64,000 nt of DNA from Chloroflexota bacterium (GTDB lineage Bacteria; Chloroflexota; Limnocylindria; Limnocylindrales; CSP1-4), in the NCBI GenBank assembly GCA_019637815.1, contig JAHBUZ010000011.1:18758-82757 (forward strand), written 5' to 3'. The position numbers were made by a program, and so were the translations under genes. This document shows, in pieces, positions 40,809-60,448 of this stretch (the first letter of the stretch is position 1; every line of letters begins with the position of its first letter). The notes under the pieces were generated by a model. It did not search any database. It was not told the origin of the DNA and saw only the letters and a list, made by a program, of their open reading frames with translations.

Positions 40809-41054
40809 ATGGCACGTATCCCGATCGAGATGCCCCGCATGGGCTACGACATGGAGACCGGCACCATCGCCGCCTGGGTGAAGCAGGTCGGTGACAGCGT
40901 GTCGCGCGGCGATGTGCTCGCGGAGATCGAGACCGAGAAGTCCACCGTGGAGATGGAGGCGCTCGCCGCCGGCACCCTCGTGGAGCAGACGCTGGCCCCC
41001 GGCCAGGAGGTCCCGGTGGGCACGGTCATCGGCTATCTCGACGACGGCCAGTAG
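40809..41054 (+). CDS. stand-alone lipoyl-attachment domain protein (81 aa)
   Basis: Sequence MARIPIEMPRMGYDMETGTIAAWVKQVGDSVSRGDVLAEIETEKSTVEMEA is a canonical lipoyl domain with the lipoyl-lysine in ETEKS. It ends at a TAG stop. A CAGGAGG RBS precedes the ATG. Confidence 0.75.
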   Translation: MARIPIEMPRMGYDMETGTIAAWVKQVGDSVSRGDVLAEIETEKSTVEMEALAAGTLVEQTLAPGQEVPVGTVIGYLDDGQ

Positions 41055-41070
41055 GATCCACGAACCGACG

Positions 41071-41808
41071 ATGGCGGACGGACGACACCCGGTCACCTTC
41101 TCCCGGATGCGCGAGGCGATCGCGCGACGGATGGTCCAGAGCAAGACCCAGGCACCCCACTTCTATGTCTCCCGCGATCTGGCGATGGACGCGGCGCTCG
41201 ATGCGCTCGCGACCCTCAACGCTGACCGACCGAAGGAGCAGCGGGCGAGCGTCACCGCGCTGCTGTTGCGGGCCATGGCCTCGACGCTCGCCGCGGCGCC
41301 CGCGTTCAACGCGGTCTGGGAGGGCGACACGCTGGTGCGCGTGGATGCCATCAACCTGGGGGTCGCGATCGACCTCGGCGAGGGCGGCCTGATCGCACCC
41401 GCGCTGCTCGATTGCGGCAGCAAGTCGGTGGACCAGCTGGGCAGCGAGCTGCGGGACCTCGCGGAGCGGGCTCGCGCGGGCAAGCTGCGCGCCCCGGAGA
41501 TCGCCGAGGGCACGTTCACGCTCACCAACCTGGGCATGTTCGGGGTGACCAGCTTCACGGCCATCATCACGCCGCCCCAGGTGGCCACGCTCGCCACGGG
41601 CGCCACGGAGGCACGCCCGGTGGTCCGGGATGGCGCCGTGGTGGTCCGCTGGATGATGACCGCGACGCTCTCCGCCGACCATCGCGCGGTGGACGGCGCC
41701 GGGGCTGCGCGGCTGCTCGCCGATCTCCAGGCACGCCTCGATGACGCGGCCGGCTGGGTGGGCGCGACCTCGGACGCCTTCGCCGCGGATGCGGCGGGGC
41801 CGACGTGA
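41071..41808 (+). CDS. stand-alone 2-oxoacid dehydrogenase acyltransferase (E2) catalytic-domain protein
   Basis: Start MADGRHPVTFSRMREAIARRM, 16 nt after the lipoyl gene stop. E2 catalytic core with the active-site DHRAVDG. No peripheral subunit-binding domain is encoded between or within the two genes. Confidence 0.75.
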   Translation: MADGRHPVTFSRMREAIARRMVQSKTQAPHFYVSRDLAMDAALDALATLNADRPKEQRASVTALLLRAMASTLAAAPAFNAVWEGDTLVRVDAINLGVAIDLGEGGLIAPALLDCGSKSVDQLGSELRDLAERARAGKLRAPEIAEGTFTLTNLGMFGVTSFTAIITPPQVATLATGATEARPVVRDGAVVVRWMMTATLSADHRAVDGAGAARLLADLQARLDDAAGWVGATSDAFAADAAGPT

Positions 41809-43106
41809 GCAGCGCGGACGGACGCCCGCTGCCGGACCTCGACGCCGCGGTCGCGCTCGCTGACGCACGCAACCGGGCCCTGCGCGAGGAGCTGGCACCC
41901 CGCCAGGCACGTCTGCCGCTCCGCTACTGGCGACAGCAGGCGCATTTCACGACGCCTGCGGAGGCCGCCATGGCCCGCAAGGCCGTGGAGGGCGGCACCG
42001 CGCCCATGGCGCGCATCCTCGAGCGCTTCGAGGTCGGTCCGGCGATGCTCGCCGACCGGCTCGGCGTGGGCGTGGACGCGATCGAGCGGCTGCTGGCGGC
42101 TCCCCGGCGCGCGCCCATGGTGATGCTCGATGCGGAGGACGCCCTCGCGCTCACGGACGCGGCTGCCGCCCAGGCGCGTCTGGATGCCGCGGATATCCTC
42201 GCGACGGCCGACTGGAGTGGCGGCGGACCACCCAGCCTGCGCTTCTACCGGCCACCGGGCCTGGCGCTGGGCTCCACGGCCCGCGAGCTGTACGGGCTCC
42301 TGTGGCGGCTCGTGGAGGCATCTCCGGACGGTCGGATCCCGCTCGACGGCATCGTGTTCCCCAAGATCGAGCATCCCGAGGAGGTGGACCTGGTCCACGG
42401 CATGCTCACGGAGGCCGAGCGCTCGCTGGGGCTGCCGGTCGGCGGCATCCGGGTCGCGTACCTGGTGGAGTCGGGATGGGCGGCGGCCCAGCTGGCGGAC
42501 CTCGCGCAGCGCGCCGCCGATCGGCTGTGTGCCCTCGTCTTCGGGCTCGCGGACTACTCCGCGGACGTCGGCCTGCCGTCCATCGCCAACGAGCATCCGC
42601 TCGCGGACTGGGCCCGCGCCACGATCGTGGACGTCGCCGGCGCGGTGGGCGTGCCCGCCATCGATGGCATGACCCTCGACTACCCGGTCGCCGACCCGGC
42701 ACTCGATGGTCCGGCCAATCGTGTCCGGTTCCTCGATCGGATGCAGCTCGTCTACCGCGATGCCGTCCGGGCCCGGGACTTCGGCATGCTCGGCAAGTGG
42801 GTGGGTCATCCGGCCCAGCTGTTCGCGGTGCTGCTGGCGTACGAGACGGGCTTCACGGACGCTGCGCTGGAGGCGGAGGCGGCCAAGCTGGCCGCGTACG
42901 ACACCGCGGTCCACCAGGAGGGCAGGGGCGCCACGATGATCGCGGGTGTCATGTCCGACCGGGCGACCGACCGCCACGCGCGGGTGGTCCTCCGCCAGGC
43001 GACGGCGCTGGGGCGGTTCGACCCGGCCCGGGCGCTCGCCCTCGGGGTCATCGATGCCGATGAGCTGGCCGACGCACAGGACGCATGGCGAGGTGGACCC
43101 GCATGA
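41805..43106 (+). CDS. HpcH/HpaI-aldolase/CitE-family acyl-CoA lyase (malyl-CoA/citramalyl-CoA-lyase-like)
   Basis: GTG start overlaps the E2 stop by GTGA. Carries the CitE-family MLDAEDA motif and is about 430 aa long. Confidence 0.8.
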   Translation: MSSADGRPLPDLDAAVALADARNRALREELAPRQARLPLRYWRQQAHFTTPAEAAMARKAVEGGTAPMARILERFEVGPAMLADRLGVGVDAIERLLAAPRRAPMVMLDAEDALALTDAAAAQARLDAADILATADWSGGGPPSLRFYRPPGLALGSTARELYGLLWRLVEASPDGRIPLDGIVFPKIEHPEEVDLVHGMLTEAERSLGLPVGGIRVAYLVESGWAAAQLADLAQRAADRLCALVFGLADYSADVGLPSIANEHPLADWARATIVDVAGAVGVPAIDGMTLDYPVADPALDGPANRVRFLDRMQLVYRDAVRARDFGMLGKWVGHPAQLFAVLLAYETGFTDAALEAEAAKLAAYDTAVHQEGRGATMIAGVMSDRATDRHARVVLRQATALGRFDPARALALGVIDADELADAQDAWRGGPA

Positions 43107-43669
43107 CCGACGAGCCCGGGGCGGACGTCCCGACCACCCAGGACGGCGCCGCGGCATCGGACGGTCCCACCGCCCCGGATGCCCCGGCGACCCGGCGTGT
43201 GGTCGGCTGGGAGGGCCGCTTCCTCGATGACTTCCAGGTCGGCGACGTGTACCGCCACTCGCACGGCCGGACCATCACCCAGACGGACAACACCTGGTTC
43301 ACGCTGCTCACCAACAACACCCACGACGTCCACTACAACGTGGACTACGCATCCCGGACCGAGTTCGGCAAGCCGCTCGTGGTGTCCACCCTGACACTGG
43401 CCATCGTCACGGGTCTGTCCGTGGAGGACGTCAGCCGCAACGCGGTCGCCAACCTCGGCTGGGAGCAGGTCCGCTGCCCGGCACCCGTATTCGCCGGTGA
43501 CACCCTGTATGCCGAGACGGAGGTCCTGGACGTCCGACCGTCGCGGTCCCGGCCCGGCCAGGGCATCGTGCGGGTGCGCACCCGAGGGCTCAACCAGGAC
43601 GGCACGGTCGTCATGGAGTTCGAGCGGAGCGTCCTCGTCTACAGCCGGGCGTCCCGGCCCGGCGCCTGA
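43103..43669 (+). CDS. MaoC-like enoyl-CoA hydratase/dehydratase (hot-dog fold), paralog 1
   Basis: ATG overlaps the CitE stop by ATGA. MaoC-dehydratase fold blocks (AGDTLYAETEVLDVRPS). Confidence 0.8.
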   Translation: MTDEPGADVPTTQDGAAASDGPTAPDAPATRRVVGWEGRFLDDFQVGDVYRHSHGRTITQTDNTWFTLLTNNTHDVHYNVDYASRTEFGKPLVVSTLTLAIVTGLSVEDVSRNAVANLGWEQVRCPAPVFAGDTLYAETEVLDVRPSRSRPGQGIVRVRTRGLNQDGTVVMEFERSVLVYSRASRPGA

Positions 43670-47135: not shown

Positions 47136-49904
47136 TCAGCCGGTGCTCTGGACCCCCGCCGCGACCCCGCTCACGGTGAGGAACACGAGGCGCTCCAGCT
47201 CGCGTCGCTCGGGCGCCTCCGGGGGCAGCGCCCGGGCGCGTGCAAGGAGCCGGACCTGGAGCTCGGAGAGCGAGTCGACATAGGGATTGCGCAGCTCGAT
47301 GGAGCGCTGGAGCACGGGCATCGCGTCCATGATCCGGGGTCGCCCCGTGACCGCGAGGATGCCATCCCGCGTGAGTCGGTACTCGCGCCGGATGCGCCGC
47401 CACACACGCCTCGACTCCGGCGTCGGGGCGAGACCGGCGTATCGCCGGGCCACCTGCATGTCCGCCTTGGCGAGGCTCATCTCCGCCGTGTCGATGACAC
47501 CCGCCAGGAAGGGCCACGTCCGATACAGAACGCGGAGTCGCTCCAGCCCTGCCTCGCCGTGTGCCGCCACGTGGTCCGCGATGGCGCTGCCCACGCCGTA
47601 CCAGCCGGGCAGGTTGGCACGCGACTGTGACCACGCGAAGACCCATGGGATAGCCCGCAGCTGCTCGAGGGTGCGGGGTGCGCCGCCGGCGGCACGGGCG
47701 GATGGGCGGGAGCCGATGGCCATGCCCGCGAGCTCGTCGATGGGCGTGGCCGCCCGGAAGTACTCCTCGAACCGGGGGTCTTCCCAGACCAGCGAGCGGT
47801 ACGCGCGACGGGAGCTCGCCGCGAGCGCATCCATGACCGCCGCACCCTCCGCGCCCACGGCGCGGGTCCGTTCCGCGTGCGCGGGGGCCGATGCCAGCAG
47901 GACCGCGCTCGTGAGCTGCTCCAGGTGACGCTGCGCGATGACCGGGTTGGCATAGCGATCGGCGATCACCTCGCCCTGCTCGGTGAGCTTGAGGCGTCCG
48001 TCGACCGACCCCGGTGGGCCAGCCAGGATGGCCTGGCTCATGGGCCCGCCACCCCGGCCGATGGCACCACCCCGGCCGTGGAACAGGGTGAGCGTCACGC
48101 CATGGCGCCGACCGGCTGCGGTCAGCTGCTCCTGGGCGCGGTACAGCATCCAGGCCGCCGCGAGCGGTCCGGACTCCTTGGTGGAATCGGAATAGCCGAG
48201 CATCACCTCCTGCCGGTCGCCCCGGGTGGCGAGGTGGGCGCGATATGCCGGGTCGGTGAGCAGGGCATCGACGATGGCACCGCTCCCCTCGAGCGCGTCG
48301 GCCGACTCGAACAGGGGCACCACGTCCAGCGCGACCCCACCCGCCCGGTCCGCGAGCGCCAGCACGTCGAGGATGTCCTGGGCGCCACGTGTGAAGCTGA
48401 TGACATAGCGATGACAGGCACGCTCCCCGAACGATACCTGGATGTGCGCGATGGCCCGGAACGTGTCCAGGACCTCCACCGCGACACCGCTGGATGGGAC
48501 GAGGGCACCCGGCTCATCGCGGGCCAGCTCCGCGAGCGCGCGGGCATGCACCTCGCTGTGCTGCCGGACCTCCAGCCCGAGAGCGTGGAAGCCGAAGGTC
48601 TCGACCTGCCACCGGAAGTCCTGGAGGTCACCCCACGCGACCCGCGCCATGCCCTGCGCCAGGAGCGCCTCACGCAGGGTGTCGAGCGCGGCCAGCAGCT
48701 CACCCGGATGTCGATAGCCGACCGGGTCGTCCAGCCCGTCCACGAGTCGCGCCCGGGTCCGTCGAAGTCGCTCACCCATCGCCGTGAACGCCTGTCGCCA
48801 GGGCTCGCCCGGGAACCGTCGCTGTGCCTCGGCCATGGTGGCCGGCAGCTCTCGCGCATCGAGGGACAGCTGCGCGCGGAGCGCGCCGGGCAGCTCGTCC
48901 GTCGGCGTCGTCGCCGCGATGGTCTGGGCGAGACGTGACGCGACGGCCTCGTAGCCGTGGAGCACGTGGTCGGCGTGGATACGCATCGCCTCGCGGGTGA
49001 CGGCGGCGGTCACGGAGGGATGCCCGTCCCGGTCACCACCGACCCACGAGCCCCATTCGAGGTACGCGGTCACGCGTGGTGGCCGGGTGCCCGTGCGACC
49101 CGTGTCACGAGCCGCGCCCAGGGCCACCTCGGGCATGTCATCGAGCGCCCCGTCGAGCGCACGGTAGAGCCGCGGCGCGACCACGAACAGCGATTCATCG
49201 AAGAACGCCATCACGCTCCGCACCTCGTCGAGGGGCGAGGGCGCCTGCACCCGGAGTGGCGAGGTGTGCCAGAGCAGGGTGATCTCCTGCCGCAGACGAC
49301 GCCGGATGGCGGCGTCCTCGTCGGGTGTCAGGCGGGGATCGTCCAGCTGGTCGAGCGCGCGGTAGCACCGACGGAGCGCGATGAGCATGGTCCGGCGCCG
49401 GGCCTCGGTCGGGTGCGCCGTGAGGACGAGGCCCACGGACAGCCGCTCGATCGTGGCACGCCACCGGCTGCGGGGCACCCCGGCACGACGCAGCCGGTCC
49501 ACGGCATCCGCGACCGAGCCGTCCACGACGCCTCGTGGCGATGTCCTGGCCCGTCGTCGTAGCCGACGCACCCGCTCCTTCTCCTCGGCGAGGTTGGCGA
49601 GCTGGAAGTACAGGCCGAACGCCCGGATGAGCACCTCGGCACGCGGCGCGTCGATGCCGTCCAGCTCCGCGGCGAGCGCCCGACGCTCATCCACGCTGTC
49701 GGTCCGACGGAGCGCGATGGCGGCGCGTCGGATGCGCTCCACCAGGTCGAGCAGCTCCTCCCCCTCCTGCTCCACGATGACCTCGCCCAGCAGCGCGCCG
49801 AGCAGCTTGACCTCGCGGGCCAGCGGATCGCGCGCGCCGGACGTACCGATGCCCCGCGGCTCGGCGCGGACGGCGGCGTTGGGACGGGGATCACGGGCGG
49901 CCAT
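47136..49904 (-). CDS. ppc: phosphoenolpyruvate carboxylase
   Basis: PEPC signatures VLTAHPTE and GYSDSTKESG at about 920 aa. Start at ATG 49904 is uncertain. Confidence 0.85.
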   Translation of the reverse strand: MAARDPRPNAAVRAEPRGIGTSGARDPLAREVKLLGALLGEVIVEQEGEELLDLVERIRRAAIALRRTDSVDERRALAAELDGIDAPRAEVLIRAFGLYFQLANLAEEKERVRRLRRRARTSPRGVVDGSVADAVDRLRRAGVPRSRWRATIERLSVGLVLTAHPTEARRRTMLIALRRCYRALDQLDDPRLTPDEDAAIRRRLRQEITLLWHTSPLRVQAPSPLDEVRSVMAFFDESLFVVAPRLYRALDGALDDMPEVALGAARDTGRTGTRPPRVTAYLEWGSWVGGDRDGHPSVTAAVTREAMRIHADHVLHGYEAVASRLAQTIAATTPTDELPGALRAQLSLDARELPATMAEAQRRFPGEPWRQAFTAMGERLRRTRARLVDGLDDPVGYRHPGELLAALDTLREALLAQGMARVAWGDLQDFRWQVETFGFHALGLEVRQHSEVHARALAELARDEPGALVPSSGVAVEVLDTFRAIAHIQVSFGERACHRYVISFTRGAQDILDVLALADRAGGVALDVVPLFESADALEGSGAIVDALLTDPAYRAHLATRGDRQEVMLGYSDSTKESGPLAAAWMLYRAQEQLTAAGRRHGVTLTLFHGRGGAIGRGGGPMSQAILAGPPGSVDGRLKLTEQGEVIADRYANPVIAQRHLEQLTSAVLLASAPAHAERTRAVGAEGAAVMDALAASSRRAYRSLVWEDPRFEEYFRAATPIDELAGMAIGSRPSARAAGGAPRTLEQLRAIPWVFAWSQSRANLPGWYGVGSAIADHVAAHGEAGLERLRVLYRTWPFLAGVIDTAEMSLAKADMQVARRYAGLAPTPESRRVWRRIRREYRLTRDGILAVTGRPRIMDAMPVLQRSIELRNPYVDSLSELQVRLLARARALPPEAPERRELERLVFLTVSGVAAGVQSTG

Positions 49905-49999
49905 CGGGGTGCAGGCTACCCTGCCACGCCGCGTGGCGGGGCCCATCGCGTGCAGGATGGCAACCATCTGGGACATCATGCGCATCCACCGACGACGCG

Positions 50000-50584
50000 A
50001 TGTGGAGGATCCTGGGCGTGATGACACCATCCCCGCGCTGGGTGCGACCCCTGGCTGCTGCTGGCTCCATCCTGCTGCTGGCAGGATGTGTCCGACTCTC
50101 GTCGGTCGGCTCCAGCCCCGTCCCCACGAGCGATCCCAGCGTGGTGCCCGTGCCGAGCGTCACGGTCCCGGTGCCGACCCCCAGCCCCACGCCTCGCATC
50201 ACGCTCGCGCCCACCCCGTCGCCGACGCCGGCACCCACACCGACCCCGGACGACGGCGCCCAGGTGGTGGAGGTCTCGCTCCTCGACACGCTGGTCATCG
50301 AGCCCACGCGGATCACGGTGCGGTCGGGCACGCCGGTCCGTTTCGTGGTCACCAACGACGGGGGTCTGCCGCATGACTTCTTCATCGGCACCGACCGGGA
50401 GCAGAAGCAGCGCGAGAGCGCCGAGGCCGAGCCGGGTCCCGATCGGTACATCGAGGTGCCGCCGGGTGAGACGCGGACCCTCACGATGACCTTCCCGGAG
50501 GCGACCCGGACCATCGCGGGATGTGTCGTGCCCGGCCACTACAGCGCGGGCATGCGCTCCACGGTCGTCGTCCGGGAGCCGTAG
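50000..50584 (+). CDS. cupredoxin-domain lipoprotein (type-1 copper site H-C-H-M)
   Basis: Lipobox (LLAGC), a Pro/Thr-rich linker, then a cupredoxin fold with ligands LPHDFFI...CVVPGHYSAGM. Confidence 0.6.
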   Translation: MWRILGVMTPSPRWVRPLAAAGSILLLAGCVRLSSVGSSPVPTSDPSVVPVPSVTVPVPTPSPTPRITLAPTPSPTPAPTPTPDDGAQVVEVSLLDTLVIEPTRITVRSGTPVRFVVTNDGGLPHDFFIGTDREQKQRESAEAEPGPDRYIEVPPGETRTLTMTFPEATRTIAGCVVPGHYSAGMRSTVVVREP

Positions 50585-50707
50585 GCCATGGCACGGAACG
50601 GCCCACCGTCACCGAGCGGCTCGCCCACGTCACGAACGGGTGCCTCGCGGCACCGGAGGGGTGATCCGGGGGATGACCCCCGGTACCTTCGGTCGTATGC
50701 TGCGCAC

Positions 50708-51181
50708 ATGTCACGCATCGCCTCGCCCCTGCTGAGCCTGCTGGCCGTCCTCGGCCTCGTCCTCGTGCTGCCGGTCGCCGCGGTGGCCGCCGACGCCTGC
50801 ACCGTGACCGTGTCGCCGCGCACCGGTGAGCCCGGCACCCGGTTCGTGATCCGGGGACAGGGCTTCACGCCCAGCACCATCACGCTCACCCGGGGTGACG
50901 AGGAGCCACGGACCATCGACGTCTCGGGTGACCAGGACTCGTTCCGGGTGGGCCTCATCGCCGCCGAGGCGGACACGGGTCGCTGGCGCGTCCGCGCCGA
51001 GGGGTGCTCCGACACCGCCAGCCTCCGGGTCACGCTGCCGCCGACGGCCACCGAGAGCGTCGTCACGGGCGAGCAGGACCGCACCACCGAGCTCGCCGCA
51101 GCCGTCCTCCTGGCCGTGCTGTTCCTGGGCTCCACGGCACTCCTGCTGCCTCGCCTGACGAGAGCCGCCCGCTCGCGTTAG
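50708..51181 (+). CDS. hypothetical secreted protein with a C-terminal membrane anchor
   Basis: Start MSRIASPLLSLLAVLGLVLVLPVAAVAADA is a signal peptide. The C-terminal hydrophobic segment LAAAVLLAVLFLGSTALLLP is followed by basic residues. Function unknown. Confidence 0.4.
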   Translation: MSRIASPLLSLLAVLGLVLVLPVAAVAADACTVTVSPRTGEPGTRFVIRGQGFTPSTITLTRGDEEPRTIDVSGDQDSFRVGLIAAEADTGRWRVRAEGCSDTASLRVTLPPTATESVVTGEQDRTTELAAAVLLAVLFLGSTALLLPRLTRAARSR

Positions 51182-51193
51182 CCTGAGGGGGAG

Positions 51194-52897
51194 GTGCAGA
51201 CCCAGCTCCCTGTCATCCGCACGTACACCGGGCCGGACCGCGCGTCCGCCCAGGAGGCCTATCGCCGCGACGCGCAGCAGGCGCGCCAGACCGGCTGGCA
51301 TGCGGTCGCCCATCGTTGGCGCGTGGTCGATGGTCAGCAGGAGCTGGCCGTCGTGTTCCAGCCGGCAGCCTCCACGGTCGACGAGCCCGAGACGGTCGAC
51401 GCACCGTTCGCTGCTGTGCCCGAGGCGCCCCTCGAGGCGACCATGAACGAGGCGGATGTCGGAGCCGAGGCGGAGGCCGAGACGCCCGTGGGCGCCGTCG
51501 AGGCCGAGGCGGCGGATGTCGGAGCCGAGGCGGAGGCCGAGACGCCCGTGGGCGCCGTCGAGGCCGAGGCGGCGGATGCGGCCGAGGCGGAGGCCGAGAC
51601 GCCCGTGGGCGCCGTCGAGGCCGAGGCGGCGGATGCGGCCGAGGAGGAGGCCGTCAGCGCCGAGGAGGCCGTCGGGGCGGATGCGGAGCCTGTCGGGGCC
51701 GGGGAGCCCAGTGCGGCCGCCGTCGACGACGACCCACCGGCTGCGACATCCCCCACGGTCGACGAGCCCGACACGGCCGCGGAGCCGGAGCCCAGGGAGC
51801 GCCCGACCACGCCCAGCCAGCCCGCGAGCGGCGCCCGCGCCCATGCCCGGATGGTCATCGAGACCATCGACCTGCATGCCGGCGGTGAACCGCTCCGGCT
51901 CATCCGCTCGGGCTATCCGCGGGTCCCCAGCGCGCCCATCCTGGAGCGACGACGCTGGGTGCGGGAGCACGCGGACGCCGTGCGTCGGGCGATCATCCAC
52001 GAGCCGCGCGGCCACCGGGACATGTATGGCGCGGTGCTCCTGCCGGCACACCGACCAGATGCGGATATCGCGGTGCTGTTCCTCCACAACGAGGGATACA
52101 GCACGATGTGCGGGCACGGCATCATCGCGCTCGCCACGGGACTCCTGGAGGAGGGCCTGTATCCGGCCACGGCCCCCACCACGACCATCCGCTGGGAGAC
52201 GCCGGCTGGCCTGGTCACGTCCACCAGCGAGGTGTCGCTCGGCCCGGGCGGGCGCGTCGCGGTGTCCGGTGTCCGGTTCCGCAACGTGCCGGGCTATCTC
52301 CACGCCCGAGACCTGCTGGTGCCACTCGGCACGCTCGGTCCGCCGGGTGTCGCGGCGGCACGAGCCCACCTGGCCTTCGGTGGCGCGTACTACGGCATCG
52401 TGGATGCCGCGGATCTCGGCGTGCGCGTGACGCGTGACGCGGTGCCTGCGCTCCGCACCCTGGGCACCACCCTCACGGCACGGCTCCGCGAGGACCACGC
52501 GCCGACCCACCCCACCGATCCGGACCTCGGCTTCGTGTACGGCACGATCATCGTGGATCACGATCCGGCGAGCCTCTCGGATGGCCTGGCGCCGGATGCC
52601 GATCTGCGCTCCATCACGGTGTTCGCGGACGCGGAGGTCGATCGATCGCCCTGCGGCTCGGGGACGAGCGCCCTGCTCGCGTGGCTGCACGCGACCGGCC
52701 GACGTGCCGTCGGCGACCACGTGCGGAACGCGAGCGTGACCGGGGCCGTGTTCGACGGACGGATCGAGGAGACCGCGACCGTCGGCGACCGGGACGGCGT
52801 CGTGACGAGCATCGCGGGCACGGGCTACGTGACGGGCTACCACACGTTCGTGGTGGATGAGCGCGATCCGCTGGGAGACGGCTTCCTGCTGGCCTGA
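51194..52897 (+). CDS. proline-racemase-family enzyme (4-hydroxyproline epimerase/proline racemase type, both catalytic Cys present) fused to an N-terminal domain and an acidic tandem-repeat linker
   Basis: The C-terminal roughly 350 aa (from MVIETIDLHAGGEPLRLIRSG at 51851) carry MCGHG and SPCGSGTSA. The N-terminal 219 codons are continuous in frame with strongly GC-rich third positions. GTG start at 51194 after a GGGGGAGG RBS. The enzyme could alternatively initiate at 51851. Confidence 0.65.
   Translation: MQTQLPVIRTYTGPDRASAQEAYRRDAQQARQTGWHAVAHRWRVVDGQQELAVVFQPAASTVDEPETVDAPFAAVPEAPLEATMNEADVGAEAEAETPVGAVEAEAADVGAEAEAETPVGAVEAEAADAAEAEAETPVGAVEAEAADAAEEEAVSAEEAVGADAEPVGAGEPSAAAVDDDPPAATSPTVDEPDTAAEPEPRERPTTPSQPASGARAHARMVIETIDLHAGGEPLRLIRSGYPRVPSAPILERRRWVREHADAVRRAIIHEPRGHRDMYGAVLLPAHRPDADIAVLFLHNEGYSTMCGHGIIALATGLLEEGLYPATAPTTTIRWETPAGLVTSTSEVSLGPGGRVAVSGVRFRNVPGYLHARDLLVPLGTLGPPGVAAARAHLAFGGAYYGIVDAADLGVRVTRDAVPALRTLGTTLTARLREDHAPTHPTDPDLGFVYGTIIVDHDPASLSDGLAPDADLRSITVFADAEVDRSPCGSGTSALLAWLHATGRRAVGDHVRNASVTGAVFDGRIEETATVGDRDGVVTSIAGTGYVTGYHTFVVDERDPLGDGFLLA
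51455..51631 (+). repeat. three tandem direct repeats (60, 60 and 57 bp) encoding the acidic peptide repeat D(V/A)(G/A)AEAEAETPVGAVEAEAA
   Basis: Unit GATGTCGGAGCCGAGGCGGAGGCCGAGACGCCCGTGGGCGCCGTCGAGGCCGAGGCGGCG is repeated exactly at 51455 and 51515. A 57-bp variant follows at 51575, and degenerate copies come after that. Confidence 0.75.
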
Positions 52898-52962
52898 GCC
52901 GGTCTGCGGCCGACCGACGGGACGGCTGCAACCGCTGGGCCCCGGGCCGTGTTCCTGTCAGC

Positions 52963-53532
52963 GTGTGCATCGAATGCCCCGCCGCGCTGGCGACCGACCC
53001 CCGGGCCGCGTTCCCGACGTTCGTGCGTCATCACCAGGACCTGGTCTACGGGCTCGCCCGGCGGTGGACCCGTGACGCCGCCGATGCCGAGGACGTGGCC
53101 CAGGATTCGTTCCTGCGCGCCTGGCGAGCCATCGAGCGCTATCCGCCGGAACGCATCCGGGAGCTCCACACACGAGGCTGGCTGGCACGCATCGTGCGCA
53201 ACGTCGCCCACAACCGTGCCCGGGACGCCGCACCGGCACACGCGACCCTCGAGGATGCCCCCGAGCCGGTCGATCCGGAGGCCCGCACGCCCGTGGCGAC
53301 GCTGATGCGTCGCGAATCGGCACGTACCTGGGCGGCACGCCTGGCGCAGCTGCCGGACCGGCAACGGATCGCCGTGGAGCTGCGCCATGTGCACGGCCTG
53401 TCCTACGCGGAGATGACGGAGGCGCTGGAGCGTCCCGTCAACACCATCAAGTCGGATGTCCACCGGGGCATCCGCACGCTCCGTGCCTCGATGGAGGCCG
53501 CGGACGACCTGGAGCTGGAGGTGGCGCGGTGA
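52963..53532 (+). CDS. ECF (sigma-70 family) RNA polymerase sigma factor
   Basis: Region 2 (DAEDVAQDSFLRAWRAIERY) and region 4 (LPDRQRIAVELRHVHGLSYAEMTEALERPVNTIKSDVHRG). GTG start at 52963. Confidence 0.75.
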   Translation: MCIECPAALATDPRAAFPTFVRHHQDLVYGLARRWTRDAADAEDVAQDSFLRAWRAIERYPPERIRELHTRGWLARIVRNVAHNRARDAAPAHATLEDAPEPVDPEARTPVATLMRRESARTWAARLAQLPDRQRIAVELRHVHGLSYAEMTEALERPVNTIKSDVHRGIRTLRASMEAADDLELEVAR

Positions 53533-54344
53533 ACCGGCCACGGACCCTGGAGGAGGCACGCACCATGGTGAAGGCGATGCGCGAGACGGCGGAGCGGGCA
53601 CCCGATGGTCTCGCGGACGCGGTGCTCGCGGAGCTGGGCATGGCCGATGGCTATGCGGAGGTGGACGGGCCGGTCGACCGGCTGTACGTCGCGTGGGGCC
53701 CCGACGGCGTCACGGCAGTGGAGCGCGTGGGCGATCCCATGGGCTTCGAGACGGAGGTCCAGCTGCGCACCGGTCGACCCGTCCGGCGCATGGAGCGACT
53801 GCCGGCGCGCCTGGCGCGACAGGTCGACCGCCAGCTCGCCGGTGACCGGCAGCGGGACCTGCCCGTGGACCTCGGCACGCTCACCTCGTTCGAGCAGCAG
53901 GTGCTCCGGACGGTCATGGGCATCCCGTGGGGCGAGGTCCGCTCCTACGCGTGGGTGGCTCGGGAGATCGGTCGGCCACGGGCGGTGCGGGCCGTGGGCT
54001 CGGCGCTCGCCGGCAACCCCATCCCGTTCGTCATCCCCTGCCACCGGGTGGTCCGCACGGACGGCCACATCGGTGAGTACGGGGCCGGTGGCCCGGAGGC
54101 GAAGCGGGAGGTGCTGCGCACGGAGGGCATCGACCCTGACGAGCTGGAGGCGCTCGCCGACCGGGGCATCCGCTATCTGGGCAGCGACACCACGGGCATC
54201 TATTGCTGGCCCTCGTGCCACCACGCGCGCCGCATCACCGACGCCCATCGCGTGACCTTCCGGACCGCGGAGCAGGCACGCGTCTCGGGGTTCCGGCCAT
54301 GCACCGCGTGTCGGCCCCTGGAAGGGGCCGTGTTCGCGGCCTGA
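53529..54344 (+). CDS. O6-alkylguanine-DNA alkyltransferase (Ogt/MGMT) fused to a C-terminal Ada-type zinc-finger (methylphosphotriester-sensing) domain
   Basis: The ATG overlaps the sigma-factor stop by ATGA. The MGMT DNA-binding domain has the PCHRV active site (NPIPFVIPCHRVV). The C-terminus TGIYCWPSC...GFRPCTACRP matches the Ada N-terminal Zn-binding Cys4 motif. Confidence 0.7.
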   Translation: MNRPRTLEEARTMVKAMRETAERAPDGLADAVLAELGMADGYAEVDGPVDRLYVAWGPDGVTAVERVGDPMGFETEVQLRTGRPVRRMERLPARLARQVDRQLAGDRQRDLPVDLGTLTSFEQQVLRTVMGIPWGEVRSYAWVAREIGRPRAVRAVGSALAGNPIPFVIPCHRVVRTDGHIGEYGAGGPEAKREVLRTEGIDPDELEALADRGIRYLGSDTTGIYCWPSCHHARRITDAHRVTFRTAEQARVSGFRPCTACRPLEGAVFAA

Positions 54345-54412
54345 TCCGTCCGTCGAGCCCAGCGATCGGCCGGGCGATCGGCCGACCACCGTCGGTCGAC
54401 CGATGCCGTCGG

Positions 54413-55264
54413 TCAGGCGGGTCGCCGGGCGACCACCGAGACGAGCGGTGTGCGCCAGTGGAAGGCCTCGGGAGGCAACGCTGACAGGCGACGCTGGGCG
54501 ATGTCCACGAGTCGATGGGCGTCCTCGTCGGACAGCCATCGGAAGAGCGCCGTCTCGTCGTAGCGGATCTTGAACGCCAGGTAGCTCGCCAGCGTCCAGT
54601 CGAACGCGAGCGTGGTCTCGCGGGCGCTCACGCGCACGAACCCGGCGCGTCGGACCTCGTCCGCGGCGCTCCGGACGCTCCGCAGGTCACCCGCGACCGG
54701 CGCCTCGTCCTCGGCTGGCTCCGGCTCCTCGACACCCAGGTCCAGGACCGCCTCATCGAACTCCTCGGCGGGCGGGAACGGCTCGCCCCGGTCGAGCCAT
54801 GTGATGAACGCGAGCTGGCCACCCGGTCGGAGGACGCGCCGCGCCTCGGCGAGCGCGGCAGGTCGGTCGGGCACCAGCTGGAGCGCGAAGGAGCTGACCA
54901 CGAGGTCGACGGACGCGTCCGGGATCGGCATCGCCGCGGCGGGGGCCGTGATCCAGCGCACCCGGTCGTCATCCAGGGCCGCACGCTCGGCGCGCCGCGC
55001 CGCCATCCCCAGCATGCCCCGCGACGGGTCGACGCCCAGCACGAGGGCGTCGGGCCAGCGCGCCGCGGCATCGATGGCCAGCACCCCCGAGCCGGTCCCC
55101 ACGTCCGCGACGATGGGTCGTGTCGACGGGTGGCTCGCGATCGGCGCGCCGACCCGGTCGAGCAGCCCGCGGGCGCTCGCATCGAGCACCGGCGCCCACC
55201 AAGTCTCGTAGTCCTCGGCATCGTGGTCGTATCGCTCGACGAGCGTGCACACGGTCGTATCCAT
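54413..55264 (-). CDS. class I SAM-dependent methyltransferase
   Basis: Motif I (VADVGTGSGVLA), post-I acidic residue and motif II (LRPGGQLAF). Confidence 0.75.
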   Translation of the reverse strand: MDTTVCTLVERYDHDAEDYETWWAPVLDASARGLLDRVGAPIASHPSTRPIVADVGTGSGVLAIDAAARWPDALVLGVDPSRGMLGMAARRAERAALDDDRVRWITAPAAAMPIPDASVDLVVSSFALQLVPDRPAALAEARRVLRPGGQLAFITWLDRGEPFPPAEEFDEAVLDLGVEEPEPAEDEAPVAGDLRSVRSAADEVRRAGFVRVSARETTLAFDWTLASYLAFKIRYDETALFRWLSDEDAHRLVDIAQRRLSALPPEAFHWRTPLVSVVARRPA

Positions 55265-55296
55265 GGATCCGGACCCGGACGGCCGAGCCGGGACGA

Positions 55297-57681
55297 CTAC
55301 TTCTTCGGCCTGCCCACGAGGTGGTAGATACCGCCACCCTGCGAGAGCACGTACAGCTCGCCCTCGTCATCCTCGCCCATGGACACGAACAGTGAGTCGT
55401 TCTTGCGGATCAGGCGCTTGATGGGGAGGTTCGCGCCCGGCTTGGCCTTGCTCGCGTCGATGGCATAGATGCTCTTGGAGCAGTAGTCGGTGAACAGGTA
55501 GGCGCCCTCGAGGAGCGGTGACTGGGTGCCACGGTAGACGTAGCCGCCGATCACCGAGCAGCCCTTCGCGCCGTGCTGGTACTCCGCGACGGGCATGGTC
55601 ATGCCCCTCGTGGAGCAGTTGGCGTTCCGATGACAACGCGATCCTTCCAGCACGGACCAGCCGAAGTTGGCACCGCCCTTGCCGGCACGCTGGATGTCGA
55701 TCTCCTCGATGCGGTCCTGGCCGACATCGCCGATCCAGAGGTCACCCGTCTTGCGGTCGAAGCTCGCTCGCCACGGGTTGCGCAGGCCATAGTTCCAGAG
55801 CTCCTTGCGGCCGCCGCCGTCCCGGAACGGGTTGTCCCGCGGGATCGAATAGGGGTTCCCCCGGTCGACGTCGATGCGCAGGATGCTGCCGAACAGGTCG
55901 TTGCGGTCCTGGCCGTTGCCGAACGGGTCCCCCGGTGAGTTGCCACCACCATCACCCGATGCGATGTACAGGTAGCCGTCCGGCCCGAACCCGATCCAGC
56001 CGCCGTTGTGGTTCCACTCCGGCCGCGCGAAGTCGAGCAGCGTCCGGCCCGATCCCGCCCCGACCTCTCGACCGACCCTGCGCTGCCGGTACTCCACGAT
56101 GCGCGTGTTGCCGGCAGGCGTGTTGTAGTGGACGTAGAACTTGCCGTTCCGCGCGAACCTGGGATGGAACGCCAGGCCCAGGAGACCCCGTTCACTGCGC
56201 TCCTGCATGCCCACCCGACCCCGCAGGTCCAGGAGGGTGCCGCGCGTCCGGCCCCGCTTGTCCATGATCCGGATGAGACCGTTCCGCTGGACCACGTACA
56301 GCCGTCCCTCGCCCGTGCCGTCACCGGTCAGGTAGATGGGGAACGCGTTGAGGCCCAGGTCGGCCACCGGCTCGAGTCGCAGCCTGACCTTGCCGGCGCG
56401 GAAGCCGGTCGACCCCGTGCCCGGCGATCGCGTGGGCGCAGGGCTCGTCGCCGGGGAAACGGATGGTTCGGGCGATGCCGGCGGCTCGGTCGGCTCGACC
56501 CCGGTGATGGTGGCCGTGACCCGCAGGATCCGCCCGCCGAGATCCACCGCGTACAGCTCGCCCGCCTCGTCCTCGCCGAAGGCGGACAGGCTCCCCTCCA
56601 TCTGCCCCACGAGCTCCGGGGTGGCCGTCCCGCTCGCCACCGCGTCCGCGGCGGACAGCAGCCACAGCTTGCCGGAGCAGTAGTCACCGTAGATGTAGGC
56701 GCCATCCAGACCCGGCAGGGCCGTGCCGCGATAGACATGGCCACCCACGATGGTGCAGTCATCCCCGCTCGCATGGCTGTAGGCGGCGACCGGCAGCGTG
56801 AGCCCGGTGCGGTCGCACTCGCTCGCCTCGTAGCAGTCGGGGCCCTCCATGATCGACCAGCCGAAGTCCAGGCCCCCCTGGCCTGCCGGCAGCACGTCCA
56901 CCTCTTCCCAGGCGCCCTGGCCGACGTCCCCGATGAACACATCGCCGGTCGTCCGGTCCACGCTGAAGCGCCACGGGTTGCGCAGGCCGGAGGCCCGGAT
57001 CTCGGGGCGCGCGTCGGGGCCCAGGCGCGCCTCCGGGTCGTTCACGGGGATGCCGTAGGGGTCGCCGCTGTCCACGTCGATGCGCAGCAGCTTGCCCAGC
57101 AGCTGGGTGTCGTCCTGGCCGTTGCCCTGCGGGTCGCCGCCACCGCCGCCGTCACCGGTGCCGATGAGCAGCATCCCCTCATGGTCGAAGGCGAGCATGC
57201 CCCCGTTGTGGTTGCCCGCGAAGTCCGGCATCTCGAGCAGGATCCGCTCCGACGCGGGATCGGCGACGCCATCCGCGGCATGGAGCTCACTGACCACCTG
57301 GACGGCGCCGCCCTGGCCGGTGTAGTAGGCGAACAGGCGGCCGTTGGTGGCATGGTCTGGGTGGAAGGCGAGGCCCAGCAGACCCTGCTCGCCACCCGAG
57401 GTGACACGATCGGTGATGTCCAGGAAGGGCGTCGGTGACACGCTGCCGTCAGGCGCGATCGCCCGGATCGTGCCGCCCTGCTCCACCGCGTACAGGGTGC
57501 CCGATCCCGTCCCGTCCGGCACCAGCGCGACCGGGGCCGCGAGGCCCTCCGCGAACGGCTCGAGACCCAGGGTCACGGTGCCCGGCACATAGCCGGGGGT
57601 GGTGTCCGGTGTCTGCGCGGTGGCCGCCACCGCGGGCAGGCTCAGGACGACGGCGATGAGGAGCGAGATGGTTCGGCGCAC
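55297..57681 (-). CDS. secreted tandem-duplicated PQQ-dependent soluble sugar (glucose/sorbosone) dehydrogenase-like beta-propeller protein
   Basis: Two GSDH-like halves (repeated blocks GLLGLAFHP, NHNGG, GDGG, GLRNPWR, DVGQ) separated by a Pro/Ser/Thr linker. The GTG start at 57681 gives an ideal signal peptide (RRTISLLIAVVLSLPAVAATAQT). The longer track ORF would overlap aceE. Confidence 0.7.
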   Translation of the reverse strand: MRRTISLLIAVVLSLPAVAATAQTPDTTPGYVPGTVTLGLEPFAEGLAAPVALVPDGTGSGTLYAVEQGGTIRAIAPDGSVSPTPFLDITDRVTSGGEQGLLGLAFHPDHATNGRLFAYYTGQGGAVQVVSELHAADGVADPASERILLEMPDFAGNHNGGMLAFDHEGMLLIGTGDGGGGGDPQGNGQDDTQLLGKLLRIDVDSGDPYGIPVNDPEARLGPDARPEIRASGLRNPWRFSVDRTTGDVFIGDVGQGAWEEVDVLPAGQGGLDFGWSIMEGPDCYEASECDRTGLTLPVAAYSHASGDDCTIVGGHVYRGTALPGLDGAYIYGDYCSGKLWLLSAADAVASGTATPELVGQMEGSLSAFGEDEAGELYAVDLGGRILRVTATITGVEPTEPPASPEPSVSPATSPAPTRSPGTGSTGFRAGKVRLRLEPVADLGLNAFPIYLTGDGTGEGRLYVVQRNGLIRIMDKRGRTRGTLLDLRGRVGMQERSERGLLGLAFHPRFARNGKFYVHYNTPAGNTRIVEYRQRRVGREVGAGSGRTLLDFARPEWNHNGGWIGFGPDGYLYIASGDGGGNSPGDPFGNGQDRNDLFGSILRIDVDRGNPYSIPRDNPFRDGGGRKELWNYGLRNPWRASFDRKTGDLWIGDVGQDRIEEIDIQRAGKGGANFGWSVLEGSRCHRNANCSTRGMTMPVAEYQHGAKGCSVIGGYVYRGTQSPLLEGAYLFTDYCSKSIYAIDASKAKPGANLPIKRLIRKNDSLFVSMGEDDEGELYVLSQGGGIYHLVGRPKK

Positions 57682-57742
57682 CGCGACAGGATAGCCCAGG
57701 ACCGGCCGGGGACCCCGGACGGGACCTGCGTGGGAGGGGTCG

Positions 57743-60448
57743 TCAGTGCTCCAGCGCGAAGGGCGCATCCGGGTCCACACCGAGCGTCCGGATGGCATCC
57801 CGTGCCTCCTCCGCCGGCAGCCCGCCGCAACGTGCGAGGCCCGCCAGGGTGGCGGCCACGATGTGCTCCGTATCGACGCCGAAGAAGCGTCGGAGCGCCT
57901 CGCGCGTGTCGCTGCGCCCGAACCCATCGGTGCCCAGGCTGGTCCATGCCTCCGGCGCGACCCAGCGGCTGACCATGTCCGGCCACGCCCGGATCCAGTC
58001 GCTGACCGCGATCACGGGACCGCGCCCGGCCGGCTCGGCGAGGAGCTGCGCGACCACCGGGACGCGCCGCGGCTCACCCGGATGGAGCAGGTTCCAGTGC
58101 TCCGCCGCGAGCGCCTCGTTGCGCAGCAGCTGGTAGGACGTGGCGCTCCAGATGTCCGCCGCGACGCCGAAGCGCTCGGCCAGGACGGTCTGGGCACGCA
58201 GCGCCTGCTGCATGATCGACCCACCCGACAGGATGGTGGCGCGAGGTGCGTTGGCGGGCAGCCCGCTCGCCTCGCGGAAGCGGTAGAGACCACGCACGAT
58301 GTCCGCGTCCGTGACCCCGTCGGGCCGGGCGGGCATCACGTGGTTCTCGTTGTACAGCGCGAGGTAGTACAGCAGGTCCTCCGGCTGGTCCCCGTACATC
58401 CGCTCGATGCCGTCGTGGATGATGGCCGCGGTCTCGTACGCGAAGGCCGGGTCATAGGCGCGCATCGTGGGGATGGTCGAGGCGAGGACCAGGCTGTGAC
58501 CGTCCTCGTGCTGGAGCCCTTCCCCATTGAGCGTCGTGCGACCGGCCGTCCCGCCAAGCAGGAAGCCACGGGCACGTGCGTCCGCCAGCAACCAGATCTG
58601 GTCGCCCGTCCGCTGGAAGCCGAACATGGAATAGAAGATGTAGAACGGGATCATCGGTTCCGCGTGGGTCGCGTACGAGGTGCTGGCGGCCTGGAGCGAT
58701 GCGGTGGATCCCGCCTCGGTGATGCCCTCCTCGAGCACCTGGCCGTCGGTCGCCTCCCGGTAGGACAGCACCAGGTTGGAGTCCACGGGCTCGTAGCGCT
58801 GCCCCAGCGGCGCGTAGATGCCCACCTCCTTGAACAGGGGGTCGAGGCCGAACGTGCGTGCCTCGTCCGGGATGATGGGCACCACGCGCTTGCCCACGCC
58901 CGGGTCGCGGATGAGATCACGCAGGAGCCGTGCGAAGGCCATCGTGGTGGACGCCTCCTGCGTCCCCGACCCGGCGTCGAAGGCACCGAACACCTTGGCG
59001 GGCGGCAACTCCAGCGGGCTGGACACCACCACCCGACGGGGGGTCGGGCCACCAAGGGCGGCGCGCCGCTCCAGCAGGTAGCGGATCTCCGGGGCGTCGT
59101 CGGCGGGCCGGTAGTACGGCGCCTCCTTGAGCTGCGCATCGGGGATGGGCAGCTGGAGCCGATCGCGGAAGACGCGCAGCTCCTGCTCGTTGAGCTTCTT
59201 GGCCTGGTGGGTGATGTTGCGTGCCTCGATGCCCGGACCGAGCATCCAGCCCTTGACGGTCTGGGCGAGGATCACCGTCGGTCGACCCTGTTCCTGGGTC
59301 GCCGCCCGATACGCCGCGTACAGCTTCCGGTAGTCGTGGCCGCCCCGCCGGAGCGACTTGATCTGGTCGTCCGTGAGATCCTCGACGAGCGACAGCAGCC
59401 GCGGGTCCCGGCCGAAGAAGTGCTCCCGGATGTACGCCCCCGATTCGACGGTGTACTTCTGGGATTCGCCATCGAGGACGTCACCCATGCGCTGCACGAG
59501 CACGCCGTCCACGTCCCGCGCCAGGAGCGCATCCCACTCGCGACCCCAGATCACCTTGATGACGTTCCAGCCGGCGCCCCGGAAGATCGACTCCAGCTCC
59601 TGGACGATCTTGCCGTTGCCGCGGACCGGGCCATCGAGCCGCTGGAGGTTGCAGTTGACGACGAAGGTCAGGTTGTCCAGCTGGTCGCGGGCCGCCAGCG
59701 AGAGCGCGCCGGTCGACTCCGGCTCGTCCATCTCGCCATCGCCCAGGAACGCCCAGACCCGGCTGCCACTGGTGTCCTTGATGCCCCGCTGGTGGAGATA
59801 GCGGTTGAAGCGTGCTTGGTAGATGGCCGCCAGGGGCCCGAGCCCCATCGAGACCGTGGGGAACTCCCAGAAGTCGGGCATGAGGCGGGGGTGCGGGTAC
59901 GAGCTGAGCCCTTCGCCCGGCACCACCTCCTGGCGGAAGTGGTCGAGCTGGTCCTCCGTGAGCCGACCCTCCAGGAAGGCGCGCGCATAGATGCCGGGTG
60001 CTGCGTGGCCCTGGAAGAAGACCTGGTCGCCCATGCCGGGTGCGTCCTTGCCCCGGAAAAAGTGGTTGAAACCGACCTCGTACAGGCTCGCCGCGCTCGC
60101 GTAGGTCGCGAGGTGGCCACCGATGCCCGGCGAGACCGCGTTGGCCCGCAGGACCATGGCCACCGCGTTCCAGCGGACCATGCGTCGGATGCGCAGCTCC
60201 ATCTCCTCGTCACCCGGGAACAGTGGCTCCTGCTCGGGCGAGATGGTGTTGATGTAGCGCGTCTGGGTGAGCGCGGGCAGGCCGATGTCCAGCTGTCGCG
60301 CCCGCTTGAGCAGGCGGTACAGCACGAACCGGGCACGGCCGATGCCGTCGTTCTGGACGAGGGACTCGAGCGAGGCGATCCAGTCCTCGGTCTCGGCAGG
60401 GTCGCGGTCAGGGAGCTGCCGCTTGAAGTCGGCGTCGTGGTCGATCAT
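57743..60448 (-). CDS. aceE: pyruvate dehydrogenase E1 component, homodimeric type
   Basis: About 900 aa with strong similarity to AceE throughout (MIDHDADFKRQLPDRDPAETEDWIASLESL...). ATG at 60448. Confidence 0.9.
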   Translation of the reverse strand: MIDHDADFKRQLPDRDPAETEDWIASLESLVQNDGIGRARFVLYRLLKRARQLDIGLPALTQTRYINTISPEQEPLFPGDEEMELRIRRMVRWNAVAMVLRANAVSPGIGGHLATYASAASLYEVGFNHFFRGKDAPGMGDQVFFQGHAAPGIYARAFLEGRLTEDQLDHFRQEVVPGEGLSSYPHPRLMPDFWEFPTVSMGLGPLAAIYQARFNRYLHQRGIKDTSGSRVWAFLGDGEMDEPESTGALSLAARDQLDNLTFVVNCNLQRLDGPVRGNGKIVQELESIFRGAGWNVIKVIWGREWDALLARDVDGVLVQRMGDVLDGESQKYTVESGAYIREHFFGRDPRLLSLVEDLTDDQIKSLRRGGHDYRKLYAAYRAATQEQGRPTVILAQTVKGWMLGPGIEARNITHQAKKLNEQELRVFRDRLQLPIPDAQLKEAPYYRPADDAPEIRYLLERRAALGGPTPRRVVVSSPLELPPAKVFGAFDAGSGTQEASTTMAFARLLRDLIRDPGVGKRVVPIIPDEARTFGLDPLFKEVGIYAPLGQRYEPVDSNLVLSYREATDGQVLEEGITEAGSTASLQAASTSYATHAEPMIPFYIFYSMFGFQRTGDQIWLLADARARGFLLGGTAGRTTLNGEGLQHEDGHSLVLASTIPTMRAYDPAFAYETAAIIHDGIERMYGDQPEDLLYYLALYNENHVMPARPDGVTDADIVRGLYRFREASGLPANAPRATILSGGSIMQQALRAQTVLAERFGVAADIWSATSYQLLRNEALAAEHWNLLHPGEPRRVPVVAQLLAEPAGRGPVIAVSDWIRAWPDMVSRWVAPEAWTSLGTDGFGRSDTREALRRFFGVDTEHIVAATLAGLARCGGLPAEEARDAIRTLGVDPDAPFALEH

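Follow-up and report, generated by a model that had tools for sequence, protein, structure and literature searches.

The window analysed here is a stretch of 64,000 nucleotides from a contig of a Chloroflexota bacterium, and its positions 51194-52897 hold an open reading frame (ORF) in which an enzyme domain of the proline racemase family is preceded by 219 stop-free codons in the racemase frame. The protein is already on record, since MBX3030511.1 in NCBI is exactly the same 567-aa protein, named 'MAG: proline racemase family protein [Chloroflexi bacterium]' (MAG, metagenome-assembled genome). Both the sequence and the Pfam match (PF05544 from aa 225) agree with the ORF and the in-frame extension as described in the initial annotation. 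We are highly confident that this frame encodes a single, real and conserved polypeptide composed of three parts: a small N-terminal module (the N module), a disordered linker and the racemase catalytic domain (Table 1).

Table 1. Features of the racemase fusion gene, in positions of the window.
Feature	Position	Strand	Basis or remark
Racemase fusion ORF	51194..52897	+	GTG start, 567 aa; read from sequence
Shine-Dalgarno-like G-rich element GAGGGGGAG	51185..51193	+	within the 12-nt gap from the upstream TAG (51179-51181) to the GTG; read from sequence
GTG start codon of the fusion protein	51194..51196	+	first start past the in-frame stop; sole start upstream of the conserved N module
Orphan N module, aa 6-57	51209..51364	+	AlphaFold2 (AF2) model, gapless homologue alignments, dN/dS
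Disordered acidic Ala/Glu/Pro-rich linker, aa 59-214 (~155 aa)	51368..51835	+	predicted local distance difference test (pLDDT), composition
Tandem repeat within the linker, peptide unit DVGAEAEAETPVGAVEAEAA	51455..51653	+	Tandem Repeats Finder (TRF) and direct comparison of units
Basic lead-in R-A-H-A-R, aa 215-219	51836..51850	+	conserved; the first strand of the enzyme domain follows directly
Proline-racemase-family catalytic domain, aa 220-567, with stop codon	51851..52897	+	PF05544, PDB alignments, AF2
Catalytic Cys306 codon, motif STMCGHG	52109..52111	+	aligns with the first catalytic Cys of solved members
Catalytic Cys487 codon, motif DRSPCGSG	52652..52654	+	homologue and structure alignments

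The three-part layout is shared widely among relatives. The best 120 database matches were all proteins of 402-702 aa from Chloroflexota-type MAGs, and at least 115 of them start with the same ~55-residue module, followed by a variable linker and the racemase, the exceptions being truncated or mis-started proteins. At the DNA level, a scan of one genome for each species, queried with 9 closer sequences and sampling one subfamily pattern (GWx[PA]VAHRW), returned 13 species-representative loci, all from Chloroflexota MAGs with the labels Limnocylindrales, 'Chloroflexia', Anaerolineaceae or Chloroflexota. The module precedes the racemase on the same strand in 13/13 of these loci and the frame is open throughout in 12/13, the exception (L004, P0038) being broken by one frameshift in the linker. 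An apparent split in L016 (P0057) consists of two frameshifts, and the phosphoenolpyruvate (PEP) carboxylase gene on the same contig is broken as well. An exhaustive phmmer search with the module against 1.84 billion cluster representatives recovered 17 proteins, each a fusion or part of one, to which a search with the module profile contributed fragments only. No second copy of the module was found in the window or the loci, each locus carrying it once. At the available search sensitivity, the module thus appears to be confined to the N-terminus of this racemase clade. The initial annotation had asked whether related racemases carry the extension and had judged that the architecture looks new; it is indeed undescribed in Pfam, NCBIfam, PHROGs and PDB sequences, but these counts show that it is not a one-off. 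It is a clade-wide Chloroflexota trait, present in public databases already but not remarked on there, and a literature search for N-terminal extensions of proline racemases in Chloroflexi found nothing relevant.

Several candidates for the module as a separate gene were considered and rejected. Two of them on long contigs (P0131 and P0140) are frameshift-broken fusions with the racemase in three frames, two others of 101 aa (P0136 and P0142) are fragments from the short-read Soil Reference Catalog (SRC) that have no contig record, and all apparent cases, P0038/L004 and P0057/L016 included, come down to frameshifts or short-read fragments. Adjoining genes on the contigs of L001, L002 and L016 (for the racemase, sigma factor, MGMT and PEP carboxylase) contain multiple frameshifts, and such frameshifts produce spurious 'stand-alone' N-module ORFs as well as N-terminally truncated racemase annotations in the databases.

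Because local GC is 72-81% around the fusion ORF, the stop-free run of 219 codons is in itself no proof of coding. The GC content at the three codon positions (GC1/GC2/GC3) was 0.79/0.51/0.87 in the N module, 0.95/0.57/0.90 in the repeat region and 0.84/0.66/0.90 in the remaining linker, compared with 0.74/0.53/0.87 in the racemase domain, so that the extension has the codon-position composition of genuine coding in this frame, like the enzyme domain. Codon alignments with seven related loci gave dN/dS values of 0.03-0.39 for the N module and 0.17-0.37 for the enzyme domain, and dN about equal to dS, with saturation, for the linker. Taken together, the bias among codon positions, the purifying selection seen in the N module and conservation across more than 115 homologues identify the extension as real coding sequence, in keeping with the coding-like GC3 noted in the initial annotation.

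A homologous GTG is present in 13/13 loci, 9-15 nt past the TAG of the upstream gene and behind a G-rich element, and the layout TAGCCTGA-G-rich-GTG is kept in 12 related loci. The ATG at 51851, which the initial annotation had weighed as a possible start, fared badly: the corresponding position (Met220) is Met in only 6/89 homologues and most commonly Ala (45/89), and the enzyme domain of most relatives therefore lacks a separate start codon there. The lead-in just upstream is also conserved, R215 being kept in 84/89 homologues and R219 in 88/89. From these alignments, the alternative start at ATG 51851 is effectively excluded. A scan of 49800-55400 for promoters and terminators revealed no sigma-70-type promoter and no intrinsic terminator.

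The catalytic part is a regular member of its family. The sole Pfam domain of the protein is Pro_racemase PF05544, which matches aa 225-564 to model positions 2-324 of 325 (E 3e-92; 309.6 bits against a cutoff of 27), and the solved structures 6r76, 7qpo, 7pb3 and 1w61, which consist essentially of the catalytic domain alone, align with aa 220-566. The AF2 model is confident from aa 219 to ~558 (pLDDT mostly above 90) and predicts the two-lobed, pseudo-symmetric fold of the family with the active site between the lobes. All 89 homologues aligned retain both Cys306 and Cys487, and the Cys/Cys pair is present in 119/120 best matches. The position of Cys487 is occupied by Thr in 6r76 and 7qpo, the closest solved structures by score, and by Cys in the proline racemase (ProR) 7pb3. 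The acid/base pair is formed by two Cys in ProR and 4-hydroxyproline 2-epimerase (4HypE), while trans-3-hydroxyproline dehydratases (t3HypD) carry Thr instead of the second Cys (PMC4113996). Judged by these residues and by family knowledge, the enzyme is probably a racemase or 2-epimerase and not a classical Cys/Thr trans-3-hydroxyproline dehydratase, and would catalyse a two-base (Cys/Cys) 1,1-proton transfer at the C-alpha of proline or a hydroxyproline. No NCBIfam equivalog cutoff that would assign a substrate was reached, neither by the racemase/epimerase models scored (NF010576, NF010578, NF052296 and NF010577), with 253.9 against 556 for ProR, 235.4 against 376 for 4HypE, and 145.1 against 450 and 142.1 against 442 for the others, nor by the t3HypD models NF045511 (303.6 against 540) and NF047722 (176.6 against 550). 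Within ~10 genes on either side, we found no gene for D-proline reductase, cis-4-hydroxyproline (cHyp) oxidase, pyrroline-4-hydroxy-2-carboxylate (Pyr4H2C) deaminase, alpha-ketoglutarate semialdehyde (KGSA) dehydrogenase or pyrroline-2-carboxylate (Pyr2C) reductase.

The N module was described in the initial annotation as a small, conserved-looking unit, and it proved to be both conserved and folded. AlphaFold2, run with a 35-sequence alignment, modelled the ~55 residues with a pLDDT of 88.7 as a beta-alpha-beta-beta unit (beta1 7-13, alpha 16-32, beta2 35-45 and beta3 48-57), and the full-length model kept the same elements. Across 35 and across 89 homologues, the module aligns without gaps, with the consensus PVIRTYxGxDRxxAExAYRxDxxQAAxxGWxPVAHRWRxxGxxHELxVVFE, in which R9, Y11, A30, W42, L51 and V53 are invariant and a conserved G-x-D-R lies at the beta1-alpha1 turn. 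By strand alternation, I8, T10, V38, H40, W42, L51, V53 and F55 would face the helix, and V7, R9, Y11, G13, W35, P37, A39, R41, A52, V54 and E56 would lie on the open face of the sheet, which by per-column conservation is equally or more conserved than the helix-packed face, small residues included. In this protein, the module carries a net charge of only about +2.

Searches of the module against domain libraries, of the kind proposed in the initial annotation, gave no credible match in Pfam, NCBIfam, PHROGs or, with a profile, PDB sequences. The best sequence match, to a 24-26-residue helix of a macro-domain protein (E 0.21-0.27), was rejected as not credible, and all 35 module members searched against Pfam at E up to 10 retrieved nothing credible, and no match to ACT, dodecin, DUF1737 or Cse60. 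Foldseek comparison of the module with the PDB gave no match with E < 0.05; the top weak matches were ACT or ACT-like domains and the C-terminal metal-binding domain of NikR (probability 0.9-0.99, TM-score 0.45-0.58), and a weak fold likeness to S10/NusE was also seen (TM-score 0.61-0.69). The N module is a generic beta-alpha-beta-beta half-sandwich that does not qualify as an ACT, NikR C-terminal or dodecin domain. It is an independently folding unit without detectable relatives outside this racemase fusion, and this ~55-aa module defines a new small domain family that domain databases could take up.

Between the module and the enzyme, aa 61-214 have a pLDDT below 50 in the full-length AF2 model, and the linker contains 43 Asp+Glu against 2 Lys+Arg, together with 46 Ala and 18 Pro. 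The three near-perfect repeats reported in the initial annotation are present, as two identical 60-mers (51455-51514 and 51515-51574) with a third copy of 57 nt (51575-51631) and a degraded fourth after them (TRF: 57-nt period, 3.3 copies, 96% matches, 51464-51653). They are not conserved, however: the closest relatives, P0002 and P0003, lack the repeat, which is therefore a recent expansion private to this genome. Linker length varies from 43 to 177 aa in homologues where both landmarks could be located and reaches ~290 aa in homologues of 693-702 aa, and the linkers of relatives are not alignable with each other. Most are acidic, and those of some lineages are neutral (L012 and L013, 3 D+E against 5 K+R). 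L009, L013, L014 and P0067 have lineage-specific linker repeats of their own. Linker expansion is thus recurrent and lineage-specific, and linker turnover is rapid, replication-slippage repeats like the 60/60/57-nt array being part of the cause. Comparison of the homologues shows that the presence of the linker is maintained and its sequence and length are not, which makes it a clean natural case of a region whose presence is selected and whose sequence is not. Among individual proteins, linkers near 300 aa were observed in P0059 (702 aa) and P0067 (693 aa), the latter with AGPAGEYA three times, and P0062 (611 aa) has a charged Arg/Glu-rich segment, EREERERREAEA.

The genes around the fusion follow a local order that is conserved among related loci: PEP carboxylase (minus strand), a cupredoxin lipoprotein, a TIG-like C-terminally anchored protein, the fusion protein, an extracytoplasmic function (ECF) sigma factor in some loci only, an MGMT/Ada-Zn protein, a methyltransferase (minus strand) and a double glucose/sorbosone dehydrogenase (GSDH) protein (minus strand), with the pyruvate dehydrogenase (PDH) E1 among further neighbours within ~10 genes. 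This order tells little of function because the whole region is syntenic in the clade. The gene directly upstream (50588-51181) specifies a protein with a signal peptide, a TIG-like domain, a C-terminal transmembrane helix and a basic tail (LLPRLTRAARSR), and ends in ...LPRLTRAARSR-TAG, which is strongly conserved. The fusion GTG follows this TAG in the same frame, 12-15 nt on, in the window and in L003-L011 and L014, and the transmembrane helix and the tail are retained in L004-L006, where the remaining upstream protein differs or is shorter.

Further observations concern other genes of the window. The ECF sigma gene (52963-53532) lies between the racemase and a gene for a protein with MGMT (DNA_binding_1) and Ada_Zn_binding domains (53529-54344), with which it has a 4-nt overlap (GTGA). 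It was detected in L007-L011 and L014 and not in about half of the related loci, and in loci without a detected sigma gene the match to the window's MGMT/Ada protein begins only at residue 25-41, its first ~25-40 residues being absent or diverged, which hints that this N-terminal stretch may go with the sigma factor, perhaps in the role of an anti-sigma-like segment. On the minus strand, 55297-57927 encodes 876 aa with two tandem GSDH beta-propeller halves that are ~43-46% identical (tblastn cross-matches) and that give two separate matches in some related loci. The plus-strand cupredoxin gene (50000-50584; plastocyanin/azurin-like, lipobox LLLAGC, Pro/Thr/Ser-rich linker) and the divergent PEP carboxylase gene (47136-50030, minus strand) overlap by ~30 nt at their starts if the longest ORF is assumed for both. 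Farther upstream, a plus-strand gene at 40891-41805 encodes a 2-oxoacid dehydrogenase acyltransferase catalytic domain alone (305 aa, no lipoyl domain detected), followed by an HpcH/malate-synthase-like/DUF6986 lyase (41805-43106) and a MaoC/mesaconyl-CoA hydratase-like protein (43085-43669), so that 40891-43669 may be an unusual acyl-CoA C-C lyase cluster.

Our preferred interpretation of the fusion, put forward tentatively and with somewhat less than even confidence, is that the N module is a protein-protein interaction domain that tethers the racemase by self-association or docking. The module would associate with itself or dock to a partner, the disordered linker would be the flexible leash holding the racemase, and the module would not be an allosteric sensor. 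A leash is favoured over allostery because the module and the reading frame are under selection while the length and sequence of the linker are unconstrained, which rigid coupling would not tolerate. The conservation of the open sheet face, small residues included, is what a buried interface would show. Solved members of the racemase family are soluble dimers. Among the roles listed in the initial annotation, a tether or disordered spacer fits best, and nothing supports a specific regulatory or localisation function.

Several points weigh against such a role. The interaction domain is proposed solely from conservation patterns and the linker argument; the PDB folds most like the module belong to ACT-like ligand-binding domains (E 0.06-0.15, TM-score ~0.5), so that ligand sensing is possible; the conserved Arg, Trp and Tyr residues could equally bind nucleic acid or a small molecule; the gene neighbourhood, with its uninformative region-wide synteny, yields no clue to a pathway or partner; and no NCBIfam equivalog threshold was reached. 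A bolder form of the tethering idea, that the N module founds a new docking-domain family which recruits the racemase/epimerase on a long leash to a specific cellular structure, seems unlikely to us. Its candidate targets would be the cytoplasmic tail LPRLTRAARSR of the upstream membrane protein or a higher-order self-assembly, and if it were true, D-proline or D-hydroxyproline production would be spatially organised and not freely cytosolic.

Two other explanations give the N module a ligand instead of a protein partner. It might be a small-molecule-sensing, truncated ACT-like domain through which a bound amino acid or other metabolite modulates the racemase, a doubtful proposal to which the Foldseek results lend some support, ACT and ACT-like domains and the NikR C-terminal domain being the top PDB matches. 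ACT domains commonly regulate amino-acid-metabolising enzymes, and the G-x-D-R at the beta1-alpha1 turn may resemble the ACT ligand loop. None of those matches reached E < 0.05, however, the module is beta-alpha-beta-beta only as against the beta-alpha-beta-beta-alpha-beta of ACT, none of the 35 members matched an ACT family in Pfam, and a disordered linker of 43-177 aa or more would be a poor conduit for allostery. The module might instead bind nucleic acid or another polyanion, for a moonlighting function or for localisation, with the acidic linker as an intramolecular mimic or an entropic bristle. The conserved sheet residues R9, Y11, R16, W35, H40, R41 and W42, the juxtaposition of a modestly positive module with a strongly acidic linker and the weak likeness to S10/NusE are in keeping with this, but the net positive charge of the module is small, acid mimicry is not conserved in view of the neutral linkers of L012 and L013, and no significant structural or sequence match to nucleic-acid-binding families was obtained, so that we regard it as quite unlikely.

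Two further explanations were considered. That the extension lies outside the functional enzyme, with the racemase starting at ATG 51851 and the upstream 657 nt untranslated or giving a separate product, is suggested by the position of this ATG exactly at the canonical family start and by the frequency of long stop-free frames at high local GC. The absence of a stop between module and enzyme in 12/13 loci, the rarity of Met at position 220 behind the conserved R215 and R219, the purifying selection on the N module in this very frame, the high GC3 throughout the extension and the explanation of both apparent 'split' cases by frameshifts (the L016 contig having a broken neighbouring gene) make this extremely unlikely. 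Tethering to the membrane through the anchored upstream protein, either by read-through of its TAG or by binding of the N module to its tail, could account for the in-frame spacing of TAG and GTG and for the conservation of the transmembrane helix and the LPRLT(R/G)xARSR tail also in loci with an otherwise different upstream protein, and the inferred topology would fit, the tail and the racemase both being cytoplasmic. Against it stand the lack of any sign of TAG suppression, the normally very low level of bacterial read-through, the inheritance of the in-frame layout among homologous loci, which reduces it to about one observation, and the fact that the in-frame upstream ORF of L012 and L013 is not the TIG-like gene. 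The conservation of the tail may merely reflect an overlapping ribosome-binding region, and we consider membrane tethering very unlikely.

What is new here is an undescribed orphan domain and a disordered tether on a well-known enzyme family, and not a new kind of system. The implication is that in these Chloroflexota, which are abundant in soil and freshwater, the racemase would be assembled, localised or partnered in a manner not previously seen. Annotation pipelines should retain the long start at GTG 51194. The practical consequences are otherwise modest, and the understanding of the catalytic mechanism is unchanged.

The C-terminal 348 aa match PF05544 end to end and contain SxMCGHG and DRSPCGSG, as in the proline racemase superfamily, whereas the matched solved members (6r76, 7qpo, 7pb3 and 1w61) lack the ~220-aa N-terminal addition found here, which no Pfam model covers. 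The Cys/Thr dehydratases 6r76 and 7qpo are nearest by overall sequence, yet the present protein retains Cys/Cys. With ACT domains (1zpv and the ACT domains of 3obi and 1psd), the module shares a small alpha/beta sandwich opening with beta-alpha-beta-beta (probability 0.97-0.99, TM-score 0.50-0.58); it lacks the second helix and the fourth strand (E >= 0.06) and is not counted as an ACT domain, and it is joined to the enzyme by a long disordered linker and not packed against it. The best superpositions were with DUF1737/Cse60-like small phage and Firmicutes proteins of similar size among the BFVD predictions (TM-score 0.66-0.73, rmsd 1.0-1.5 A over 51-57 residues). The identity to these proteins is 5-15%, E is 4e-3 or worse, there is no Pfam match and the fold is too simple to infer homology; as their own function is undescribed, the likeness gives no mechanism. 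Dodecins (2vxa, 3onr, 2vkf and 6ri3) have a similar topology, with a TM-score of only 0.28-0.37, a probability of 0.2-0.54 and no Pfam match, and the module does not belong with them.

A parallel lies in the overall plan. The module is not homologous to lipoyl, PSBD, L12 or dockerin domains, but the succession of a small folded domain, a variable Ala/Pro/acidic linker and a catalytic domain is like that of the lipoyl/PSBD linkers of 2-oxoacid dehydrogenase E2, the hinge of ribosomal L7/L12 and the dockerin-linker-enzyme arrangement, all established tether designs, and the analogy is one of design and not of family.

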